Origin: a virus | Lineage: Duplodnaviria > Caudoviricetes | Virus record (IMG/VR): IMGVR_UViG_3300022305_000326 | Coordinates: 36,741 to 100,740 of that record | Direction: 5' to 3' (one strand) | DNA: 64,000 bases | Part shown: positions 36,813 through 55,093 of the stretch, piece after piece | How the letters are laid out: every line of letters starts with the position of its first letter | Position numbering within the stretch: position 1 is the first letter of the stretch | Notes under the pieces: generated by a model | Told to the model about the DNA's origin: nothing | What the model saw: the letters and a program-made list of their open reading frames with translations, nothing else | The model's database searches: none | Position numbers and translations under genes: made by a program

Positions 36813-38309
36813 CTGTACATCTTCCATATCTACATCAAAATTTTGATCGATGTAGTATTCGTAACGTTTGATAAACTGTTCTAGTGTAGAGTTATTTTCA
36901 CGTTTACCTATTGTCATATCATCGACAATATCGTAAACAGTAGCTTTATCCTTACCACCGAACAGTCTCAAAATACGACCGATAGACTGCAATACGCGAA
37001 TCTTGGACTTGGTTGGCGATCCTAGAATCATATTGTGTAGGTTTGGTGCATTAGAACCCGTCGAGAATGAACCGAAACTTGCGACTACGATTGCATTATC
37101 CATTCCGGCTAATGATTTACGATACATATCTCTAGTGTCAGGATCAACCTTTCCTGTCATCAAGATAGCAACCTTATTATGATTAGCTGCAACCTTACAC
37201 AATTTCTCGTAAAATACGTTGGCATGTTTATCTACCAGATTAAACATGACGACCGTATTACCCTTACATGATAATGCCAGCTTTAGGATATAGTCCTCTC
37301 TAGCTTTAGAATCAATGATATATTCGACTTCTTCCTGATAAGAACCGATCTTCTTAGGGACCATTTCTTTTGTATAATGTAGAATTTTAGCTCTGATTCT
37401 TACTCTGGTTAACTCGCCTCTATCCATCAATTCCGAAGATGTTGAGTATATGACCGGCTTTGCGAAGATACCCTGTAGTACATATTCATGGAGCTTCGTA
37501 TCGTCTAATGTTCCCGTAAAACCTAAACGATATTCTGCATCACACTTTTCCAGTATACCTTTCGTGCATTCTGCCGTATATTCATGAACTTCGTCACAAA
37601 GAATAGCGTCGAACTGACTGAACCATTCAGCTTCTAATCTATAAAGCGACTGCCATGTCGATATTACGACTTTCTTATTACCGAATATCTTACTCTGACC
37701 TTCGTAAATTACATGCGTATTTTTGCCTACGTCCCATTTATTGTCAACCGAATATTCTTCGAAGTCACCTAGCAACTGTTTTACCAGACCGATTCTTGGT
37801 ACTATGATAAGGACAGTTTTGTTTATGGCAACCAGTGGTCTTAGTATGGAATACATAATAAGTGATTTACCCGATCCTGTTGCCGATATAACGAGGTTTC
37901 TTTTCTTTATCAGGGAATCAGCGACAGCCTTTTCTTGATAGTCACGAATAGTGAATTTTGAAGGGAGATTTAAATGATGCATAATCTTCCCAGCCGTTGA
38001 CTTACCGATACAAGCCTCTGAGCGTCGATTTGGGACACTTACGTCTTCTAGTGCTACCGTATATCCCCTAGCGACACAGAACTCTTCTAGAGCCTCATAC
38101 AGCCCCAAATACATACACTTCGTATTAAGGTTTAGAAGTCTAAGTTTACCGTCCCACTGTTTTGCTTTGAATTTTGGGGAGTGTTTGTAGTTAGGCATGA
38201 AGTAAGAGAAGTGTTCCTGTATTTCTCTCAGCATCCATGGTTCACCGTACAGTTTCATGTGTACGTTGTTTATTTTCTGAACGATTAATGTATTATAAGG
38301 AGTTGTCAT
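36804..38309 (-). CDS. uvsW: SF2 DNA helicase UvsW
   Basis: WDGKLRL, RDYQ, ATGSGKS, STWQS, DEVH, GFTGT, LQSIGRILR. Confidence 0.93.
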   Translation of the reverse strand: MTTPYNTLIVQKINNVHMKLYGEPWMLREIQEHFSYFMPNYKHSPKFKAKQWDGKLRLLNLNTKCMYLGLYEALEEFCVARGYTVALEDVSVPNRRSEACIGKSTAGKIMHHLNLPSKFTIRDYQEKAVADSLIKKRNLVISATGSGKSLIMYSILRPLVAINKTVLIIVPRIGLVKQLLGDFEEYSVDNKWDVGKNTHVIYEGQSKIFGNKKVVISTWQSLYRLEAEWFSQFDAILCDEVHEYTAECTKGILEKCDAEYRLGFTGTLDDTKLHEYVLQGIFAKPVIYSTSSELMDRGELTRVRIRAKILHYTKEMVPKKIGSYQEEVEYIIDSKAREDYILKLALSCKGNTVVMFNLVDKHANVFYEKLCKVAANHNKVAILMTGKVDPDTRDMYRKSLAGMDNAIVVASFGSFSTGSNAPNLHNMILGSPTKSKIRVLQSIGRILRLFGGKDKATVYDIVDDMTIGKRENNSTLEQFIKRYEYYIDQNFDVDMEDVQLR

Positions 38310-42488: not shown

Positions 42489-42953
42489 ATGTTTAAAAAA
42501 TATGACACTATAGTTCAAGAATTTAAGGGTGAATTTAGATGGCTGTCGAATTTTTGGCCGTGTGATATTTCATATGGCGGGTTAATTTTTCCGTCTGTCG
42601 AAAATGCATACCAAGCTTCTAAATTCTCAACAGACGAAGAAAGACTTAAATTTATACAAATATCGTCAGGTCATGCTAAACGATTGGGAAAGTCTGCAAT
42701 TTTAAGAAATAGTTGGGACCGAGAGAAGGTTGGAATAATGCGATCACTTCTTATCGAAAAATTCAGAAACGAAACCTTAAAATGTAGATTACTCGACACT
42801 AATGGTATGTTACTTGAGGAAGGAAATAACTGGAAAGATACCTTTTGGGGAGTTGATCTTAATACAGGTAAAGGGTCAAATATTTTAGGTAAACTCATTA
42901 TGGAAATTAGAGACGGTATTAACAGACGAACGGTAGTTGACAGTCCTGATTGA
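42489..42953 (+). CDS. NADAR family protein (YbiA-like)
   Basis: LSNFW, FPSVENAYQA.K, AKRLG, L.E.N.W.D.FWG, G.N.LG..IM..R. Confidence 0.9.
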   Translation: MFKKYDTIVQEFKGEFRWLSNFWPCDISYGGLIFPSVENAYQASKFSTDEERLKFIQISSGHAKRLGKSAILRNSWDREKVGIMRSLLIEKFRNETLKCRLLDTNGMLLEEGNNWKDTFWGVDLNTGKGSNILGKLIMEIRDGINRRTVVDSPD

Positions 42954-42964
42954 TGTGCTATAAT
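42937..42964 (+). promoter_or_regulatory. Sigma70-type early promoter with an inverted repeat around -10
   Basis: TTGACA-N16-TATAAT; arms at 42944-42957 and 42968-42981. Confidence 0.7.
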
Positions 42965-42987
42965 GGTCACATCAATCAGGAGATACC

Positions 42988-44082
42988 ATGTTAGAGATTT
43001 ATCTGATTCACGTTGCATGTCTGCTTCTAGGTGCAATCTCGATCACCTATGGATGGTATCGTAATAGAAATTCCTACGATGCTCATAATAATTTGGGTAT
43101 GAGCATCGGCTTGCATCTTATTGTTCAGGTTATAGTCGCATTTGTTCTCTATCTTCCAACTTTCAGTTCTATGAAAGATGTCGAGATTCTTAATGGACAG
43201 GTTACAGGAAAATTTTCGGAGAAAGTGTCTTGTAGTCATTCTTACAGTTGCAATTGCCGTACAGTATCGTCAGGTTCTGGTAAAAACAGAACAACCAGTC
43301 GAGTTTGCGATACCTGTTACGAACACAGTTATGATATCGATTGGGTGGTTAAGTCTACATTTGGTAGAAGTACAATCGACCGCATTAATCGTCAGGGTAC
43401 AGAAGAACCTCCACGCTGGACTGCGGTTTCTGTAGGGGAACCGTTTTCTTCACCGCACGTTTACGATAATTATGTTTTGGTCGATCCAGAATCTTTGTTT
43501 AGTGAACGTCAGTTTCTTGTAGTAAAATATAAAAATCTACCTGCATACCCGAAGGTCTATGATTACTATAGAGTCAACCGTGTAGTTCCGTTGTCTGGAA
43601 AATATACGACTTTTGCAGCAGATTTGAACCATAAATTGAATATGTCATTGAGAACTGTTGGGTCTAATAAGCAGGTCAATATTATTGTAGTTGTTGGTAG
43701 TAATTTAACCGATGATTATATGCGAGCAATCCGTCAGTATTGGTTTAATGGTAAGAAGAACGATGTTGTTGTTCTTATTAGCGAAGCTGACAATAAAATC
43801 GAGAATGCTTATGTATTCGGATGGGCCAAGAATTCTATTTCCGATATTGAGATTCGTAATGCTTTGATCGGATCGGACTTGACAGCCGAATCTGTGTCTG
43901 GTATAATCATCACGAACACCATGAAGTATTTCGTTCGTCGCAGCATGAAAGAGTTCGAATATCTTCTGGATCAGGCAGTTGTACCTTTGTGGGCAGTTGT
44001 AGTATCATTGCTACTGATGTTGGGAGCGCATATTTTTATGCACCTTAAAATTTATGAAGTACCCACTCGTCGTTTTTATTAA
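42988..44082 (+). CDS. Membrane protein with a Cys-rich periplasmic domain
   Basis: Two N-terminal and one C-terminal TM helix; CSHSYSCNC...CDTCYEH; GKKNDVV. Confidence 0.65.
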   Translation: MLEIYLIHVACLLLGAISITYGWYRNRNSYDAHNNLGMSIGLHLIVQVIVAFVLYLPTFSSMKDVEILNGQVTGKFSEKVSCSHSYSCNCRTVSSGSGKNRTTSRVCDTCYEHSYDIDWVVKSTFGRSTIDRINRQGTEEPPRWTAVSVGEPFSSPHVYDNYVLVDPESLFSERQFLVVKYKNLPAYPKVYDYYRVNRVVPLSGKYTTFAADLNHKLNMSLRTVGSNKQVNIIVVVGSNLTDDYMRAIRQYWFNGKKNDVVVLISEADNKIENAYVFGWAKNSISDIEIRNALIGSDLTAESVSGIIITNTMKYFVRRSMKEFEYLLDQAVVPLWAVVVSLLLMLGAHIFMHLKIYEVPTRRFY

Positions 44083-44646: not shown

Positions 44647-44680
44647 AGGGAACGGTTGTTTAGACCGTTCCCTTCTTTTT
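44647..44680 (+). terminator. Intrinsic terminator
   Basis: AGGGAACGG...CCGTTCCCT followed by a T-rich run. Confidence 0.75.
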
Positions 44681-44690
44681 GGAGATTATA

Positions 44691-45164
44691 ATGGATATTG
44701 TGACAGCACCCAACGAAGTCGTTACGCAAAATAAAATCGTATTTTTGGCCGGAACTATTGAAATGGGACATGCCGAAGAATGGCAGACTCAGTGGGCAGA
44801 ACGACATAATAATAAGAAAATTACGTTCCTGAATCCGCGTCGTAAAGAATGGGATGCTTCTTGGAAACAGTCCATCAATGAACCTAAGTTCAAACAACAG
44901 GTCGATTGGGAACTTGATGGACTAGAATACGCTAATGAGGTTTGGTTCTATCTTAAGGGTGGTTCCATGTCCCCAATCAGCCTAATGGAACTCGGATACG
45001 TTGCGGCATTTAAACTTATCAGTCCATATTCCGGAGTTTATGTTGTGTGTGATAAGAATTTTTGGCGTCGTGGTAATGTAGAAATTATCTGTGATCGCGT
45101 CAATATTCCTCTGTACGACAACGTCGAGATTTTTCATCACGATGTGGATTTACGATATGCTTAA
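44691..45164 (+). CDS. Nucleoside 2-deoxyribosyltransferase-like protein
   Basis: VFLAG.I, W, LNPRR, QVDWE, SPISLMELG. Confidence 0.85.
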   Translation: MDIVTAPNEVVTQNKIVFLAGTIEMGHAEEWQTQWAERHNNKKITFLNPRRKEWDASWKQSINEPKFKQQVDWELDGLEYANEVWFYLKGGSMSPISLMELGYVAAFKLISPYSGVYVVCDKNFWRRGNVEIICDRVNIPLYDNVEIFHHDVDLRYA

Positions 45165-45480
45165 ACTGTATATCATGGTCAGGAATGACAATATGAACAT
45201 CGGTCAACAGGCCGCACAAGCGGTTCATCTAGCAGTTGAGGCATCATCACTGAAAGATTTTTCTGAATGGAAACGGGATAGTAATACTGTCGTCCTTCTA
45301 TCAATCGATGGAGTTCGTGGTATGAGAAATCTACTTCACTGGATGAATGCTGTTAAACAAGACTACGTTACATTTAGGGAACCAGATCAAGGTAATACTG
45401 AAACTGGTTATGCAATCATTATGGATAGTGATGCACCATGGGCGCATATTAAAGAACTACGGCTGTTAGGTAATGTATAA
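45157..45480 (+). CDS. Peptidyl-tRNA hydrolase 2-like protein
   Basis: KLYIMVR.D, GQQAAQAVH, W....NTVVLL, FREPD, L.LL end. Confidence 0.75.
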   Translation: MLKLYIMVRNDNMNIGQQAAQAVHLAVEASSLKDFSEWKRDSNTVVLLSIDGVRGMRNLLHWMNAVKQDYVTFREPDQGNTETGYAIIMDSDAPWAHIKELRLLGNV

Positions 45481-45850
45481 TATTCAACATACTAAAGATC
45501 GCCTGAAATCATTCACGGAATTTCCGGTTGGATGGGAACATGATGATTCGCAGCCGGGAAATCTAAGGCATTATACTATGCTTATCGATGTTCTGGATGA
45601 TGTTAAATCATGGCAACTCAATGGTATGATTTATCATGATGGTTCTCTAGGATTATTCTTTTATAACGATAAGGACTATGTGACTATCGAAATAGTGGAT
45701 TACAAGTTTGAATTGTTCTACTATGATATTGTCACCAAGAATCATATTTTTGAAGAAGGATTGTCGCACAGAGAGTTACTTGACAGTCTACATAGACTGT
45801 GGTATAATACACACACTGGACGGATAGACTGTCCAGACACAAACTTATAA
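45473..45850 (+). CDS. Hypothetical protein
   Basis: Coupled ORF; its 3' end overlaps the next promoter. Confidence 0.5.
   Translation: MYNIQHTKDRLKSFTEFPVGWEHDDSQPGNLRHYTMLIDVLDDVKSWQLNGMIYHDGSLGLFFYNDKDYVTIEIVDYKFELFYYDIVTKNHIFEEGLSHRELLDSLHRLWYNTHTGRIDCPDTNL
45780..45808 (+). promoter_or_regulatory. Sigma70-type promoter of nadM-NUDIX
   Basis: TTGACA-N17-TATAAT with extended -10 TG. Confidence 0.8.
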
Positions 45851-45865
45851 GGGATAGACTCTATG
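45816..45865 (+). promoter_or_regulatory. Tandem GATAGAC-loop hairpin leader (copy 1)
   Basis: CTGGACG-GATAGAC-TGTCCAG, then a second GATAGAC ending 3 nt before the ATG. Confidence 0.65.
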
Positions 45866-46951
45866 AAGAAGTACAATACTGCGGTTGTCATTGGTCGTTT
45901 TTCTGGCGTGGTCCATAAGGGTCACTCTGAACTTTTCAAGGCTGCGGCTAAGCTGGCAGATAATGTTGTCATTATCGTTGGATCGTCGTTCAAGGCTCGG
46001 GATTTCAAGAATCCGATGAGCTTCGATGAACGTAAGGCTATGATTGGAATTCAGCTTGATTCGATGGAGATTGATAATCATTCCATCTATGGCGTTCCAG
46101 ACTATCTCTATGATGATGATGCATGGGTGTCGGAAGTGACCTCTGTCATCGAAAACGACAAATGTATTGATTCTTCATATAGTCGCAAGATTGCAGAGTC
46201 TAATATTATGGTGCGCGATACCGTTCTCGTTGGTTGCCATAAGGACAATTCGTCGTGGTATCTTGATCGTTTCCCTCAGTATGACTATGTTGAAATTCCA
46301 GTTTCCAACGGTAATGGAAAGGAACTCAACGCCACTGATATTCGCCATATGATCTACACCCAGCCCAATATCTATGACGCCAAGGATTTTGTGTCGTCTG
46401 AAGTGATGAATTATGTTCACCACTGGATGAATTCGACCGCGTGTTCCGATATGACCAAGAGCTATCTTATGAACCTTGACTATGCCAAGCCATATGTCAA
46501 TCTTCCATATAAACCGACATTTGTTACTACTGACGCCGTGGTTTTCTGCAAGAGTCATGTCCTCGTAGTGGTACGAAAGGCGCATCCGGGTAAGGGTCTG
46601 TTTGCACTACCGGGTGGATTCCTTAATACTAATGAACGTATCCGTGATAGTGTTATTCGTGAACTTATTGAGGAAACGCGAATTAAAGTCCCACATACCG
46701 ATCTCGTTATCAGTAAAATGAAGGAATTCGATCACCCGAATCGTTCACTTCGATATGGCCGTACAATTACTCATGCTGGTTTTATTAATCTTAAGTTTAA
46801 TGGTATTGGACTTCCGAAGGTTCGTGGTTCAGATGATGCAGAACATGCACAGTGGGTTCCGCTGACCATGCTCGACCGAATGAATGACAAGTTCTTTGAA
46901 GATCATTATTCAATCATTAAGTATTTCCAGTTTAGACAGGAGCAGGTATGA
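45863..46951 (+). CDS. nadM: Bifunctional NMN adenylyltransferase / ADP-ribose NUDIX hydrolase
   Basis: IGRF...HKGH, GS...KNP.SF.ER, KD.SS.YL..FPQ, NATDIR, Nudix box GG.....E.......RELIEET, SDDA, FEDH. Confidence 0.93.
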   Translation: MKKYNTAVVIGRFSGVVHKGHSELFKAAAKLADNVVIIVGSSFKARDFKNPMSFDERKAMIGIQLDSMEIDNHSIYGVPDYLYDDDAWVSEVTSVIENDKCIDSSYSRKIAESNIMVRDTVLVGCHKDNSSWYLDRFPQYDYVEIPVSNGNGKELNATDIRHMIYTQPNIYDAKDFVSSEVMNYVHHWMNSTACSDMTKSYLMNLDYAKPYVNLPYKPTFVTTDAVVFCKSHVLVVVRKAHPGKGLFALPGGFLNTNERIRDSVIRELIEETRIKVPHTDLVISKMKEFDHPNRSLRYGRTITHAGFINLKFNGIGLPKVRGSDDAEHAQWVPLTMLDRMNDKFFEDHYSIIKYFQFRQEQV

Positions 46952-47295
46952 TGGTTTATATTGAGATGATCCTGTCAAAGATTAAGTATTTGGATTGGAC
47001 GTTCGAATTGGATTCTAAACATACTGCATGGTCTGATACTCAAACTCGTGAAACTTCTCATATGATCCGTGTTAAGTTTAACGCACCGGATAATGACAAT
47101 CCGTCAAATACAACGGAACAATATGGTCGTTGGTGGGTTCTACCCGACAATTTTACGGAATCTGATGTTATCCGTACTGCATGGAAAGCTATTGAGTGTG
47201 CGGTAATTCATGAAGCACAGGAACAATTCACATATAAGGGCGTTCGTGTGCTTGACCCTCATCGTGACCTAACTATCGTAGTGGAGAAAATTTAA
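46948..47295 (+). CDS. Conserved phage hypothetical protein
   Basis: GRWW, RTAW.A....HEA.E.F.Y.G....DPH. Confidence 0.6.
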   Translation: MMVYIEMILSKIKYLDWTFELDSKHTAWSDTQTRETSHMIRVKFNAPDNDNPSNTTEQYGRWWVLPDNFTESDVIRTAWKAIECAVIHEAQEQFTYKGVRVLDPHRDLTIVVEKI

Positions 47296-47774
47296 TGATT
47301 GAATTATCAACGGATGTATTGTCACCGACTGAGGGTATTATTCTCCACGGCTGCAATGCTCAGGGCGGATACGGTTCCGGTGTCGCTGGCGCAATTTCGG
47401 CAAAATACCCACAGGCCGCTAAGGAATATTTCAAACTATTCAAGGAACCAGTCGATCCACAGCGATTGATCGGTAAATGTCAGTGGGTTAAGATTAACGA
47501 AAATCTTTATATTGTCAATGCTTTTACTCAGTTGACAATGGCGAAGGTTTATGGTGATCGTGTTGCCATTCCAGAAATGATTGAAAAGGTACTGGAACGG
47601 ACGATGTATGTTATGAAGAATTATGAATTTGTCGGTGATCTTCATGTCCCACGTATCGGATGTGGTCTTGGCGGACTGCGATGGGATGATGAAGTTAAAC
47701 CAATCTTCGAAGCGTTCTCTGTTAAGCTTAAAGATAATTGCAATAAGGATTTGTACGTACACTTCATCGCTTGA
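47295..47774 (+). CDS. Macrodomain (DarG/TARG1-like ADP-ribosyl hydrolase)
   Basis: HGCNAQG.YGSGVA..I...YP, VN.FTQ, PRIGCGLGGL.W. Confidence 0.88.
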   Translation: MIELSTDVLSPTEGIILHGCNAQGGYGSGVAGAISAKYPQAAKEYFKLFKEPVDPQRLIGKCQWVKINENLYIVNAFTQLTMAKVYGDRVAIPEMIEKVLERTMYVMKNYEFVGDLHVPRIGCGLGGLRWDDEVKPIFEAFSVKLKDNCNKDLYVHFIA

Positions 47775-47799
47775 CATGTGAATGTGATTGTGGTATAAT
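47771..47799 (+). promoter_or_regulatory. Sigma70-type promoter of nampt
   Basis: TTGACA-N17-TATAAT with extended -10 TG. Confidence 0.8.
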
Positions 47800-47803
47800 G
47801 TAT

Positions 47804-47856
47804 CTAGGGTGGATAGACTGCTCTAGTTTCTAAATTTATAGGAGATAGACTCAATG
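47804..47856 (+). promoter_or_regulatory. Tandem GATAGAC-loop hairpin leader (copy 2)
   Basis: CTAGGGTG-GATAGAC-TGCTCTAG, then GGA-GATAGAC-TCA-ATG. Confidence 0.65.
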
Positions 47857-49254
47857 ATTAACGATAGCGTAACTCTTGGTGGTATCAAGCCGGTTTTTGT
47901 TGCAGATGGTTATAAGTATTCGCAGGCTTATCAGTATCCTGAAGGAACTGATCTGATTTATTCTTATGGCGAATCTCGTGGTGGACCGTTCGACCAGATG
48001 CGAGTCTTTGGTACGGAACTGTATGTCCGTCGATTCCTTATGAGTAAGATCACTCGTGCTGACGTTGATAAGGCACAGAAATATGTCGAATCTTTTGGTA
48101 TGGTCTTTAACCGTAAGCTCTGGATGAAAATTGTTAATAAGTATAAGGGTTTTATCCCTGTTACGTTCTATGCCGTCCCTGATGGTACTGTCATTCCAAT
48201 TAAGATGCCGATCTACGCTATCGAAGCTAAGGATGAATTCCATAGTATTGCATCCTTTCTTGAAAGTGGTGCACTCGGAAGTATCTGGTATCCTTCGACC
48301 GTTGCTACTATTTCATGGAGAATCCGCAACGTAATTCGTGAGTTTTATAACCTCACTGGCGGTATCGATGGAATGATCCCTTTCGCCCTGAATGATTTCG
48401 GTCTTCGCGGCGCTGGCTGTCCAGAACTCGCAACTATCGGCGGAATGGCGCATCTTCTTTCGTTTGAAGGTACCGACAATATCCCTGCCTTTATTAGCGC
48501 ATGTGAACTGTTCGATGCCAAGCTCGCACCATCAGGCGTTTGTGCAAGTGAACACTCAACCATGACTTTCCTTGGTCGTGAAGGTGAATTCGCGCAGTTC
48601 GAAATGATGATCGACAAGTTCGCACACAAGGGAATCATGGCCGTTGTTTCGGATGGTTACGACTACTATAAGGCAGTAACCGAATTCTGGTGCAGTCCCC
48701 GTATCGTTGCCAAAGTCAAAGCGTCTGGTGCCAAGGTCGTTATTCGTCCAGATAGCGGTAATCCGGTCGATATTATCATGTGGACACTTGAAAAGCTTGC
48801 CGCCGCATATGGCAGCACTGTGAACGATGCTGGTTATTGGCAGATTGACGCTAGTATCGGTCTTATCTATGGAGACGGCATCAACGAAACCACTATTCGT
48901 GAAATCCTGAATGCCATGGACAAGGATGGTTGGGCTGCATCTAATATCGTATTTGGTATGGGTGGTGCACTTCTACAGGCTGTCAATCGTGACACTATGA
49001 AGTGGGCACAAAAGACTTCGTATGGATCGATTAATGGTGTCGGATTCGGTGTGTCGAAAGACCCAATTACCGATCCGGGGAAGAAGTCCAAGACTGGTCG
49101 TGTAACCACGCTGAGACTGGCTGATGGTAGCTATGCGGTCGGCGATAAGGATAATATCCCTGAAGGTGCGGTAGATATCATGCGCCCACTTTATGCATCA
49201 GGAGCTATCATGAATTTTCAGACTTTCACTCAGATGCGGGATAACGCACCATGA
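47854..49254 (+). CDS. nadV: Nicotinamide phosphoribosyltransferase
   Basis: D.YK.SQ..QYP, ESRG, WYPSTVAT, DFG.RG, ASEHS, VSDGYD, IRPDSG, GDGI, FGMGGALLQ..NRDT, KDP.TD.GKKS. Confidence 0.95.
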   Translation: MINDSVTLGGIKPVFVADGYKYSQAYQYPEGTDLIYSYGESRGGPFDQMRVFGTELYVRRFLMSKITRADVDKAQKYVESFGMVFNRKLWMKIVNKYKGFIPVTFYAVPDGTVIPIKMPIYAIEAKDEFHSIASFLESGALGSIWYPSTVATISWRIRNVIREFYNLTGGIDGMIPFALNDFGLRGAGCPELATIGGMAHLLSFEGTDNIPAFISACELFDAKLAPSGVCASEHSTMTFLGREGEFAQFEMMIDKFAHKGIMAVVSDGYDYYKAVTEFWCSPRIVAKVKASGAKVVIRPDSGNPVDIIMWTLEKLAAAYGSTVNDAGYWQIDASIGLIYGDGINETTIREILNAMDKDGWAASNIVFGMGGALLQAVNRDTMKWAQKTSYGSINGVGFGVSKDPITDPGKKSKTGRVTTLRLADGSYAVGDKDNIPEGAVDIMRPLYASGAIMNFQTFTQMRDNAP

Positions 49255-49910
49255 AACAGTATGAATTTGAGAGTGGTGTGACCATTCGCGGGACAGTTAA
49301 ACGCGAATGGTCACAGAATGAAATCAAGAATGAGCCGATGTTATTCAATTGTTCACTTGGGTCTGCCTATAAATTGAGTGGACCCATTACTAAAGACATT
49401 ATTGCGACGTTGCCGGATGATTGGCACGATACTCCCGTAGTCGTTGATTCACGAGTTCATATGCTTAAGAAGGGATATTACCCATGTATTCCCGGATTTC
49501 ATCATGATGATGTTCCACGCTCACGTTCAGACGGTCAGCCAAATTATCACCGTCCAGAATATCGTTCAAAGCATTTAATGGTTCTTGTTAATGGTGACAT
49601 TTGTCCGACAGAATTTGCATTAGGTGTCGCAGAATTTGATGAAGTTCCAGTTGGCCAGACAATTTATAAGGAATGGCATAAGACTGTAGTGAAGCATCTT
49701 GATGATGGAATTTTACAGAAATTTCATGCACCCGACCGTACATTGATCCAGTTCGATGATAGAACATGGCATCAAGGTACACAGGCTGTTGCAGATGGTT
49801 GGAGATTCTTCATCAGGTTTTCACAGAACACTGATAGGACGTTTAGCCCGACAAACGAGGTCCGTAGGCAGGTACAAGTTTATTTGGAAGCACCAATGGA
49901 AGGATGGTAG
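49251..49910 (+). CDS. Putative 2OG-Fe(II) dioxygenase
   Basis: IPGFHHD (HxD), WHQG distal His, WRFFIR. Confidence 0.65.
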   Translation: MKQYEFESGVTIRGTVKREWSQNEIKNEPMLFNCSLGSAYKLSGPITKDIIATLPDDWHDTPVVVDSRVHMLKKGYYPCIPGFHHDDVPRSRSDGQPNYHRPEYRSKHLMVLVNGDICPTEFALGVAEFDEVPVGQTIYKEWHKTVVKHLDDGILQKFHAPDRTLIQFDDRTWHQGTQAVADGWRFFIRFSQNTDRTFSPTNEVRRQVQVYLEAPMEGW

Positions 49911-55036: not shown

Positions 55037-55065
55037 TTGACAGCCTGATCCATGAGTGATACAAT
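55037..55065 (+). promoter_or_regulatory. Sigma70-type early promoter with an inverted repeat around -10
   Basis: TTGACA-N17-TACAAT; arms at 55046-55058 and 55067-55079. Confidence 0.7.
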
Positions 55066-55093
55066 ACACTCATGGATCACTTAAGAGGGTAAG

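Follow-up and report, generated by a model that had tools for sequence, protein, structure and literature searches.

The window analyzed here is a 64-kb stretch of DNA, the 3' part of a 100.7-kb IMG/VR phage record (IMGVR_UViG_3300022305_000326; CheckV completeness ~55%), and its source is an uncultured, T4-like phage. It carries two genes of nicotinamide adenine dinucleotide (NAD+) salvage: nadM-Nudix (nicotinamide mononucleotide (NMN) adenylyltransferase plus adenosine diphosphate (ADP)-ribose pyrophosphatase, 362 aa; Pfam CTP_transf_like and NUDIX; 45863-46951, + strand) and NAMPT (nadV, 466 aa; Pfam NAMPT_N and NAPRTase; 47854-49254, + strand). NAD+ depletion is a common way in which bacteria abort phage infection, and Nampt and Nmnat are among the known phage answers to it. 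Together, the two enzymes constitute the NARP2 pathway, by which phages respond to NAD+-depleting defenses (bioRxiv 10.1101/2024.02.11.579819). We analyzed the compact RNA leader of ~50 nt that precedes each of the two genes and that would show how expression of this pathway is set.

The first-pass annotation of this DNA had assigned a consensus sigma70 promoter to each gene, and both promoters were confirmed with 12/12 matches. The nadM promoter consists of the -35 element TTGACA, a 17-nt spacer and the TG-extended -10 element TATAAT (45780-45808, + strand). The NAMPT promoter shows the same TTGACA-17-TATAAT arrangement with TG (47771-47799, + strand), and its -35 element is overlapped by the stop codon of the Macro gene. 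Each promoter is followed by a hairpin, P1, and the two P1 hairpins present the identical loop GATAGAC on different stems, at the coordinates annotated: CTGGACG / GATAGAC / TGTCCAG in nadM (45816-45836, + strand) and CTAGGGTG / GATAGAC / TGCTCTAG in NAMPT (47804-47826, + strand). The minimum-energy fold adds a G·U and a G-C pair to each stem; that is, the true loop is the pentaloop AUAGA (45824-45828 and 47813-47817), carried by an 8-bp stem in nadM, including the G·U and G-C pairs at its top, and by a 9-bp stem with three G·U pairs in NAMPT. The linkers that follow are AAACTTATA and AAATTTATA; that of nadM (45837-45849, + strand) is A-rich and unconserved.

A second GATAGAC stands 30 nt (nadM, 45853-45859) and 32 nt (NAMPT, 47844-47850) after the first and 3 nt before the ATG in both genes, as annotated. 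The window contains 16 copies of GATAGAC against 7.7 expected, a number that no shuffle reached, and only these four stand in the two-copy leader layout. The second copy had been described as overlapping the Shine–Dalgarno (SD) sequence. This location was correct; however, it is not a single-stranded copy but tops a weak hairpin, P2', of which the SD is the 5' arm. In nadM, the SD AGGG pairs with CUCU across an AUAGA loop and the AUG follows directly (45850-45862, + strand); the fold has -0.6 kcal/mol, and the SD nucleotides are predicted to be unpaired 24% of the time on average. In NAMPT, GAG (within the SD GGAG), AUAGA and CUC form the corresponding hairpin, which ends one base before the AUG (47842-47852, + strand).

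Three further lineages have this arrangement, two of them retrieved by searches with NAMPT and NadM. The close relative L008 shares 87% identity in NAMPT and 85% in NadM, a more distant group (L024, L025 and L010) shares 52% in NadM, and a fourth lineage, L253, which was found among the nadM-anchored viral loci, shares 44% in NadM. L253 was missed by exact twin-motif patterns and was recognized by eye. When the window is compared with L008, identity is only 53-56% at third codon positions, whereas the nadM promoter and leader are 98.8% and the NAMPT promoter and leader 85.5% identical. The differences in the latter lie in the promoter spacer, in the linker and at two stem positions, where they turn G·U into Watson–Crick pairs. 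The nadM promoter is retained in L008 with one change in the -10 element. In L024 and L253, the P1 stems have wholly different sequences and the linkers are unrelated, yet both AUAGA hairpins are kept, and consensus promoters are weak or absent in the upstream sequence read in L024. The AAAYTTATA linker noted in the first-pass annotation is thus present in both leaders of the window but kept only in L008 and not in L024 or L253, and the consensus promoters, present before both genes, are likewise kept only in L008; both lie outside the conserved element.

Across the four lineages, the loop remains constant on six different stems. In seven distinct twin-loop leaders, 91% of cells pair, compared with 71% in shuffles and 24-47% in slid controls, and both sides change in 10 of 13 pairs, including three of the four P2' pairs. 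The first and second repeats are 30 to 39 nt apart across the clade, and the gap from the second GATAGAC to the ATG is 2-4 nt in the relatives. Taken alone, P2' has only 3-4 bp in the clade leaders (-0.6 to -3.2 kcal/mol), and its 3' arm tracks the local SD variant, giving AGGG/CUCU, GAG/CUC, GGAG/CUCC and GAGG/CCUC. The SD nucleotides in P2' are predicted to be 0-58% unpaired, compared with a median of 65% in the canonical leaders described below.

The twin-loop form is seen only in this clade, namely the window, L008, the L024 group and L253. Pattern scans for the twin motif in viral contigs returned 0 and then 30 stretches, of which three, all of the L024 group, were real and the others had 0-2 flanking pairs; in metagenomes, 14 stretches were returned and only L010 was real. 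A twin-loop covariance model (R2), whose training set includes the window and L253, gave the window leaders 72.9 and 64.6 bits as training members and found no new member, with no score above 31 bits among 97 further viral loci, L253 aside. A further GGATAGACT in records of the L024 group was rejected as a leader, as it lies within a coding region and forms no hairpin. Among cultured phages, neither megablast nor blastn found a close DNA relative of the window, and their NAMPT is at most 43% identical to that of the window; a single-protein locus search in IMG/VR gave no match.

The leaders of this clade belong to a wider family. In 80 viral loci fetched with a NAMPT profile, GATAGAC was repeatedly the 7-nt top of hairpins with unrelated stems on the sense strand, with a loop-to-start distance of 33-45 nt before the ATG of NAMPT or nadM, a range that includes the distances of 40 and 42 nt in the window. 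The tandem loop does not hold across this family and is a clade-specific variant. The usual second hairpin, P2, displays the SD as a pentaloop (GGAGU, GGAGA or GGAGC) on arms of 5-8 bp, with the 3' arm ending at the AUG, and its helix covaries strongly, although the leaders were not chosen by it. The window leaders lack this P2; P2' takes its place. A covariance model of nadV and nadM leaders, of the kind suggested in the first-pass annotation, was made from 29 canonical leaders with the window's clade excluded (R1). The window leaders ranked first and second in the 64 kb, with 22.4 bits (NAMPT) and 22.3 bits (nadM) and E = 0.026 each, compared with 30-57 bits for canonical members; the alignment breaks at P2. 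The third-best match (37928-37980, 17.7 bits, E = 0.22) combines an imperfect stem with the loop GAUAGUC and, ahead of an ATG, a hairpin with the SD in its loop. This is probably a chance hit, although SD-in-loop hairpins may be common in the source phage.

R1 gave 53 matches (E up to 1) in 83 loci, comprising the 80 NAMPT-anchored viral loci and three relatives. The 80 viral loci anchored on nadM yielded 82 matches with E up to 0.1, and 80 NAMPT loci of bacteria yielded 54 with E up to 1. In total, the family has about 150 copies in roughly 240 phage and bacterial loci, nearly all of them shortly before nadM or NAMPT. All R1 matches were on the sense strand, and the bacterial matches inspected were located at gene starts. 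Among the carriers are T4-like phages, jumbo phages (310-385 kb) and bacteria from several phyla, the latter being Lysobacteraceae, Microbulbifer, Cellvibrionaceae, Achromobacter, Methylophilaceae and one cyanobacterium. In the nadM-anchored set, the gene downstream of 86 pattern-found copies was NAMPT in 34 and nadM in 33, and a few recurrent small-ORF (open reading frame) families also occurred there. The first-pass annotation had regarded the element as common to the two NAD+ salvage genes, and the whole records agree with this: five phage records of 88-318 kb have just two significant copies each, and the two leaders are the only matches below E = 0.1 in the window's own 100.7-kb record. 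The model, trained on phages, lacks the power for complete bacterial genomes and gave one match in five of them.

Of 63 family members, 56 carry the loop GAUAGAC. Three members have A-U in place of G-C as the closing pair, indicating that the closing bases are a pair and that the loop proper is AUAGA. Loop position 2 is variable (U, C, A or G), and loops of the G type tend to be found together in the same genome, in counts uncorrected for phylogeny. The R1-based counts favor GAUAGAC loops owing to the training set; the variants AGAGA, AGUGA and AAAGA were seen by eye and with a cruder hairpin scan. A sequence complementary to the loop was not enriched upstream or downstream of 106 copies, and a pseudoknot or anti-loop pairing was therefore rejected. 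No convincing copy of the leader was found in the cultured phages ValKK3, RB16, ACP17 and RsoM2USA. The Synechococcus phage BUCT-ZZ01 (ON615601; L246 ~1575-1640 and ~2925-2986) has a canonical leader with the loop GAAAGAC before both nadM and NAMPT, and this cultured cyanophage is a possible laboratory system for the family.

Other genes also carry the leader. In other phages, it precedes three recurrent small-ORF families of ~77-125 aa (L009 4617-4671, L149 650-705 and L257 ~2251; L093 170-225 and L266 ~2382; L255, L264, L274, L293 and L329), indicating that the regulon has further members. The L149 contig is binned as a Nitrosarchaeum metagenome-assembled genome, but it has tRNA genes and phage-type AT-rich leaders before nadM and NAMPT and is probably a viral contig misplaced in an archaeal bin. 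Some Gammaproteobacteria have a further copy of the leader before a 343-aa gene that follows NAMPT (L210 4939-5002 and L191 4005-4078); this gene recurs after NAMPT in ~12 bacterial loci. A different RNA, freshwater-2 (RF02980, 52 bits), lies directly 3' of the phage NAMPT gene in L067 (3939-4013).

P1 marks a widespread nadM/nadV leader family of phages and bacteria that is found in no catalogue. Rfam 15, searched at gathering and relaxed thresholds, showed no family at the leaders, whether in the window, in 20 phage loci or in 10 loci of bacteria. The first-pass annotation had seen no resemblance to the nadA or pnuC NAD+ riboswitches, and no match was found at the gathering score or with E up to 10. 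In the full-text literature, we found no description of a GAUAGAC leader or of an RNA leader of nadV, nadM or NAMPT; the papers on the repressor NrtR (PMC2330246) and on NARP2 (bioRxiv 10.1101/2024.02.11.579819) do not mention one. A dedicated, conserved RNA control element before exactly these two genes, shared by many unrelated phages and by bacterial chromosomes, is apparently previously undescribed.

That the element is RNA rather than a DNA operator, as had been proposed from the differing stems, is borne out by covarying stems, strand specificity, a fixed distance to the AUG and an excess of G·U over A·C. The 106 family copies contain 95 G·U pairs and 12 A·C mismatches, indicating that the structure belongs to the sense RNA and is not a DNA palindrome. 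In addition, 85% of cells pair in 63 aligned members, compared with 47% in shuffles, with 419 double-change cells. We are almost certain that the leader is a real, selected RNA element, and it is likely to act on translation initiation.

We tentatively propose that both leaders are structured 5' mRNA leaders controlling translation of the NAD+ salvage pair, and that they serve as operators read by an oligomeric factor, which may well be one of the two enzymes. Each leader has two hairpins, both topped by an AUAGA pentaloop on a closing G-C pair. P1 is stable and lies close to or at the predicted transcript start, whereas P2', with 0-1 nt between its 3' arm and the AUG, is the clade's substitute for the canonical SD-in-loop hairpin. 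A factor that reads AUAGA would bind P1 and, in the window's clade, P2' too, and an oligomeric reader would engage both loops at once. The bound factor would clamp the SD and the start codon in P2' and block the 30S subunit; in the absence of the factor, P2' would open and the gene would be translated. On its own, P2' is not stable enough to remain closed, so that shutting the SD would require the bound factor. The twin-loop form is the most informative version of the leader so far, in that its second recognition loop sits on a weak hairpin containing the ribosome-binding site, which points to a loop-reading factor that clamps this site shut. Moreover, the second loop could switch from SD to AUAGA, which argues against a fixed tertiary contact between the canonical loops and for independent recognition of each AUAGA hairpin. 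Judged from the sequences, the leader probably limits the amount of enzyme made. Feedback by a reader enzyme would restrain a pathway that consumes phosphoribosyl pyrophosphate (PRPP), possibly with relief by its substrates. For the NARP2 pathway, excess NAD+ production and a PRPP cost are reported, as is toxicity of the KVP40 operon cloned in E. coli (bioRxiv 10.1101/2024.02.11.579819), and feedback of this kind would suit such a pathway.

Unrelated phages and several bacterial phyla carry the element together with nadM and NAMPT, which implies that its reader is encoded in the cassette, is universal or is a metabolite. Whether a protein reads the loops is, from these comparisons, an evenly balanced question. 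As the element travels with both genes, the most likely reader is one of the two dimeric nucleotide-binding enzymes, and we regard NadM-Nudix or NAMPT as a possible, still doubtful candidate for this role, with NadM-Nudix weakly favored over NAMPT. In five bacterial genomes with the motif before NAMPT and no nadM nearby, NadM was encoded elsewhere in all five, and in three Vibrio genomes of one lineage, NAMPT was present without a full NadM and without the motif before NAMPT. The products of the 115-aa and 125-aa ORFs near nadM were rejected as readers, as neither occurs outside the clade, where the motif is found without them.

Several points weigh against an operator read by one of the two enzymes. 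Neither NadM-Nudix nor NAMPT is known to bind RNA. The two genes nearly always co-occur, so that their joint presence does not tell which enzyme is the reader, and a complete record having nadM and the motif but lacking NAMPT was not found. The canonical family has one AUAGA loop, and the two-site clamp thus cannot be its general mechanism. The motif is absent from many phages having both genes (ValKK3, RB16 and ACP17), indicating that it is dispensable. Within the window, the NAMPT start site inferred from the -10 position falls 1-3 nt inside the P1 stem, such that the predicted transcript would lose 1-3 bp of P1, and the whole NAMPT leader folds no better than shuffles (z = 0.56).

Among the alternatives, an unlikely one is a twin-hairpin riboswitch, in which an NAD-related ligand (NAD+, NMN, ADP-ribose, nicotinamide or PRPP) would bridge the two AUAGA loops, stabilize P2' and hide the SD without any protein. 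The layout is that of guanidine-II, in which a variable linker joins two small hairpins with identical loops, the second of them placed at the ribosome-binding site. The loop contains a self-complementary UA step, and riboswitches typically show such a distribution, in which one set of metabolic genes always goes with the element over unrelated phages and bacterial phyla. However, the far commoner canonical form has the SD (GGAGN) as its second loop, so that a pocket of paired loops cannot be general. Outside the SD, conservation is limited to 5-7 nucleotides and does not extend to the linker; no Rfam family, mini-ykkC included, was matched; and the variable loop position 2, with G-type loops co-occurring per genome, is more in line with a reader that co-evolves with the loop than with a fixed ligand. 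A protein-free sensor covering the whole family, in which AUAGA hairpins would bind an NAD-related metabolite through paired loops in the window's clade and together with the SD loop elsewhere, is in our estimate quite unlikely. If it were true, the salvage enzymes of the phage or bacterium would be switched on only after NAD+ breakdown, for example by Thoeris, DSR or SIR2-type defenses. The leader would then define a riboswitch class of its own, and no viral sensor of immunity by NAD+ depletion would precede it.

An improbable alternative is a universal host reader, for which P1 would be a standby or enhancer hairpin for the 30S subunit or S1, or else a 5' hairpin with an entry site for an RNase (E, G or RegB-like) that sets mRNA half-life. 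Such universality would account for the many hosts, and P1 is found close to or at the predicted transcript start in the window and just downstream of a TATAAATA late promoter in several T4-like phages; in addition, an AU-rich linker follows P1 and the canonical second hairpin presents GGAG in its loop. However, a generic stabilizer needs no invariant loop, many family copies lie between cistrons rather than at 5' ends, and only two genes per genome carry the element although universal machinery meets all mRNAs.

Finally, a DNA operator, in which a repressor (NrtR-like or phage-encoded) would bind ATAGACT direct repeats about three helical turns apart together with a palindrome located in the spacer of the nadM promoter, is very improbable, since the covarying stems and the strand asymmetry exclude it for the most part: NrtR does repress nadV operons in some bacteria (PMC2330246), and three ATAGACT copies lie 30-32 bp apart around the nadM promoter, one of them within the perfect 8+8 palindrome between -35 and -10 (45783-45800, + strand), but the stems around the first copy vary and always pair, the AUG spacing is fixed while promoters come and go, a repeat spacing of 30 to 39 nt does not hold helical phase, and the palindrome, although identical in L008, is absent from the NAMPT promoter and L024. 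The palindrome itself could be an alternative pairing in read-through RNA or a DNA site. In L024, AGTCTA occurs ~21 nt upstream of the nadM P1.

The genes around both leaders are all on the + strand. Upstream of nadM lie a nucleoside 2-deoxyribosyltransferase-like gene (44679-45164, + strand; PF15891, E = 4e-27), homologues of which adjoin NAD-salvage genes in several unrelated loci (L059, L062, L069 and L166), then an ORF with a weak match to PTH2 (+ strand) and the 125-aa ORF (45473-45850, + strand). The 125-aa ORF, which has a 72% identical homologue in L008 and is not kept in L024, spans the nadM promoter and P1 and stops at the 3' end of the linker, one base into P2' (stop codon 45848-45850); ribosomes on read-through transcripts would accordingly disrupt P1 and end translation 13 nt short of the nadM AUG. 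Between the leaders lie two genes for a 115-aa protein (phrog_1540), retained in L008 and L024, and a 159-aa Macro-domain protein (46948-47774, + strand). Directly 3' of NAMPT is a 219-aa ORF (phrog_1843; 49251-49910, + strand), at the position of which the syntenic L008 has no gene, and a Pol-beta-like nucleotidyltransferase gene (+ strand) is also near NAMPT. The window has a G+C content of 39.7% and 14 clustered tRNA genes. Its nearest relatives are uncultured phages of 155-159 kb with T4-type genes such as UvsY and rIIB, and L009, a more distant relative by NAMPT, also has UvsW, gp23 and a prohead protease. Elsewhere in the window, two consensus early promoters (42937-42990 and 55037-55090) carry a 12-13 bp inverted repeat with its 5' arm in the spacer and its 3' arm reaching from just after the -10 element into the SD; in the L008 homologue of the first, pairing is kept by a compensatory change from G-C to A-T. 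These repeats resemble the logic of T4 gene e, soc and I-TevI, in which read-through transcripts hide the SD whereas proximal transcripts start inside the hairpin.

The twin-loop leader is a further candidate for the short list of enzyme-read or twin-hairpin regulatory RNAs, and it can be compared with several known systems. The canonical two-hairpin leader of nadM and nadV shares with the window the G-AUAGA-C top of P1, the genes, the sense strand and two copies per genome; it differs in that its P2 holds the SD in a pentaloop, whereas P2' of the window has an AUAGA loop and holds the SD in a stem of 3-4 bp. The NAD+ riboswitches of class I (nadA motif) and class II (pnuC motif) are likewise cis-regulatory RNAs before genes of NAD+ metabolism, but their architectures are different and they gave no match at any threshold. 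Unlike an NrtR-type operator, the element in the window has a conserved non-palindromic center, variable arms and sense orientation only. Unlike a CsrA/RsmA target, with GGA in a loop and at the SD, the family P1 loop contains no GGA (GAUAGAC or AAUAGAU), and in the window GGA straddles stem and loop.

Closer in layout are guanidine-II (mini-ykkC) and the operators of phages and of E. coli that are read by proteins. Guanidine-II shares with the twin-loop leader two short hairpins, identical conserved loops, a variable linker and the position of the second hairpin at the ribosome-binding site. However, its loops are ACGR tetraloops rather than AUAGA pentaloops, it serves other genes, its ligand frees the SD, no Rfam match to it was found here, and the canonical relatives of the window leader do not have two like loops. 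In phage Mu com-mom, a protein-binding hairpin, putative in our case, lies immediately 5' of a hairpin holding the SD and the start codon; there, Com activates by opening the second hairpin, whereas the clamp proposed here would repress. The E. coli thrS operator, read by threonyl-tRNA synthetase (ThrRS), and the gene 43 operator of T4 and RB69, read by DNA polymerase, resemble the present leaders in having a small hairpin with a sequence-specific loop beside or overlapping the SD. In thrS, two like hairpins serve a dimeric enzyme whose binding competes with the 30S subunit, and the likeness to the window is one of layout only. The loop in the window differs from those of thrS and gene 43 in that it shows no evident mimicry of a natural substrate and serves two genes of one pathway, in phages as well as in bacteria.

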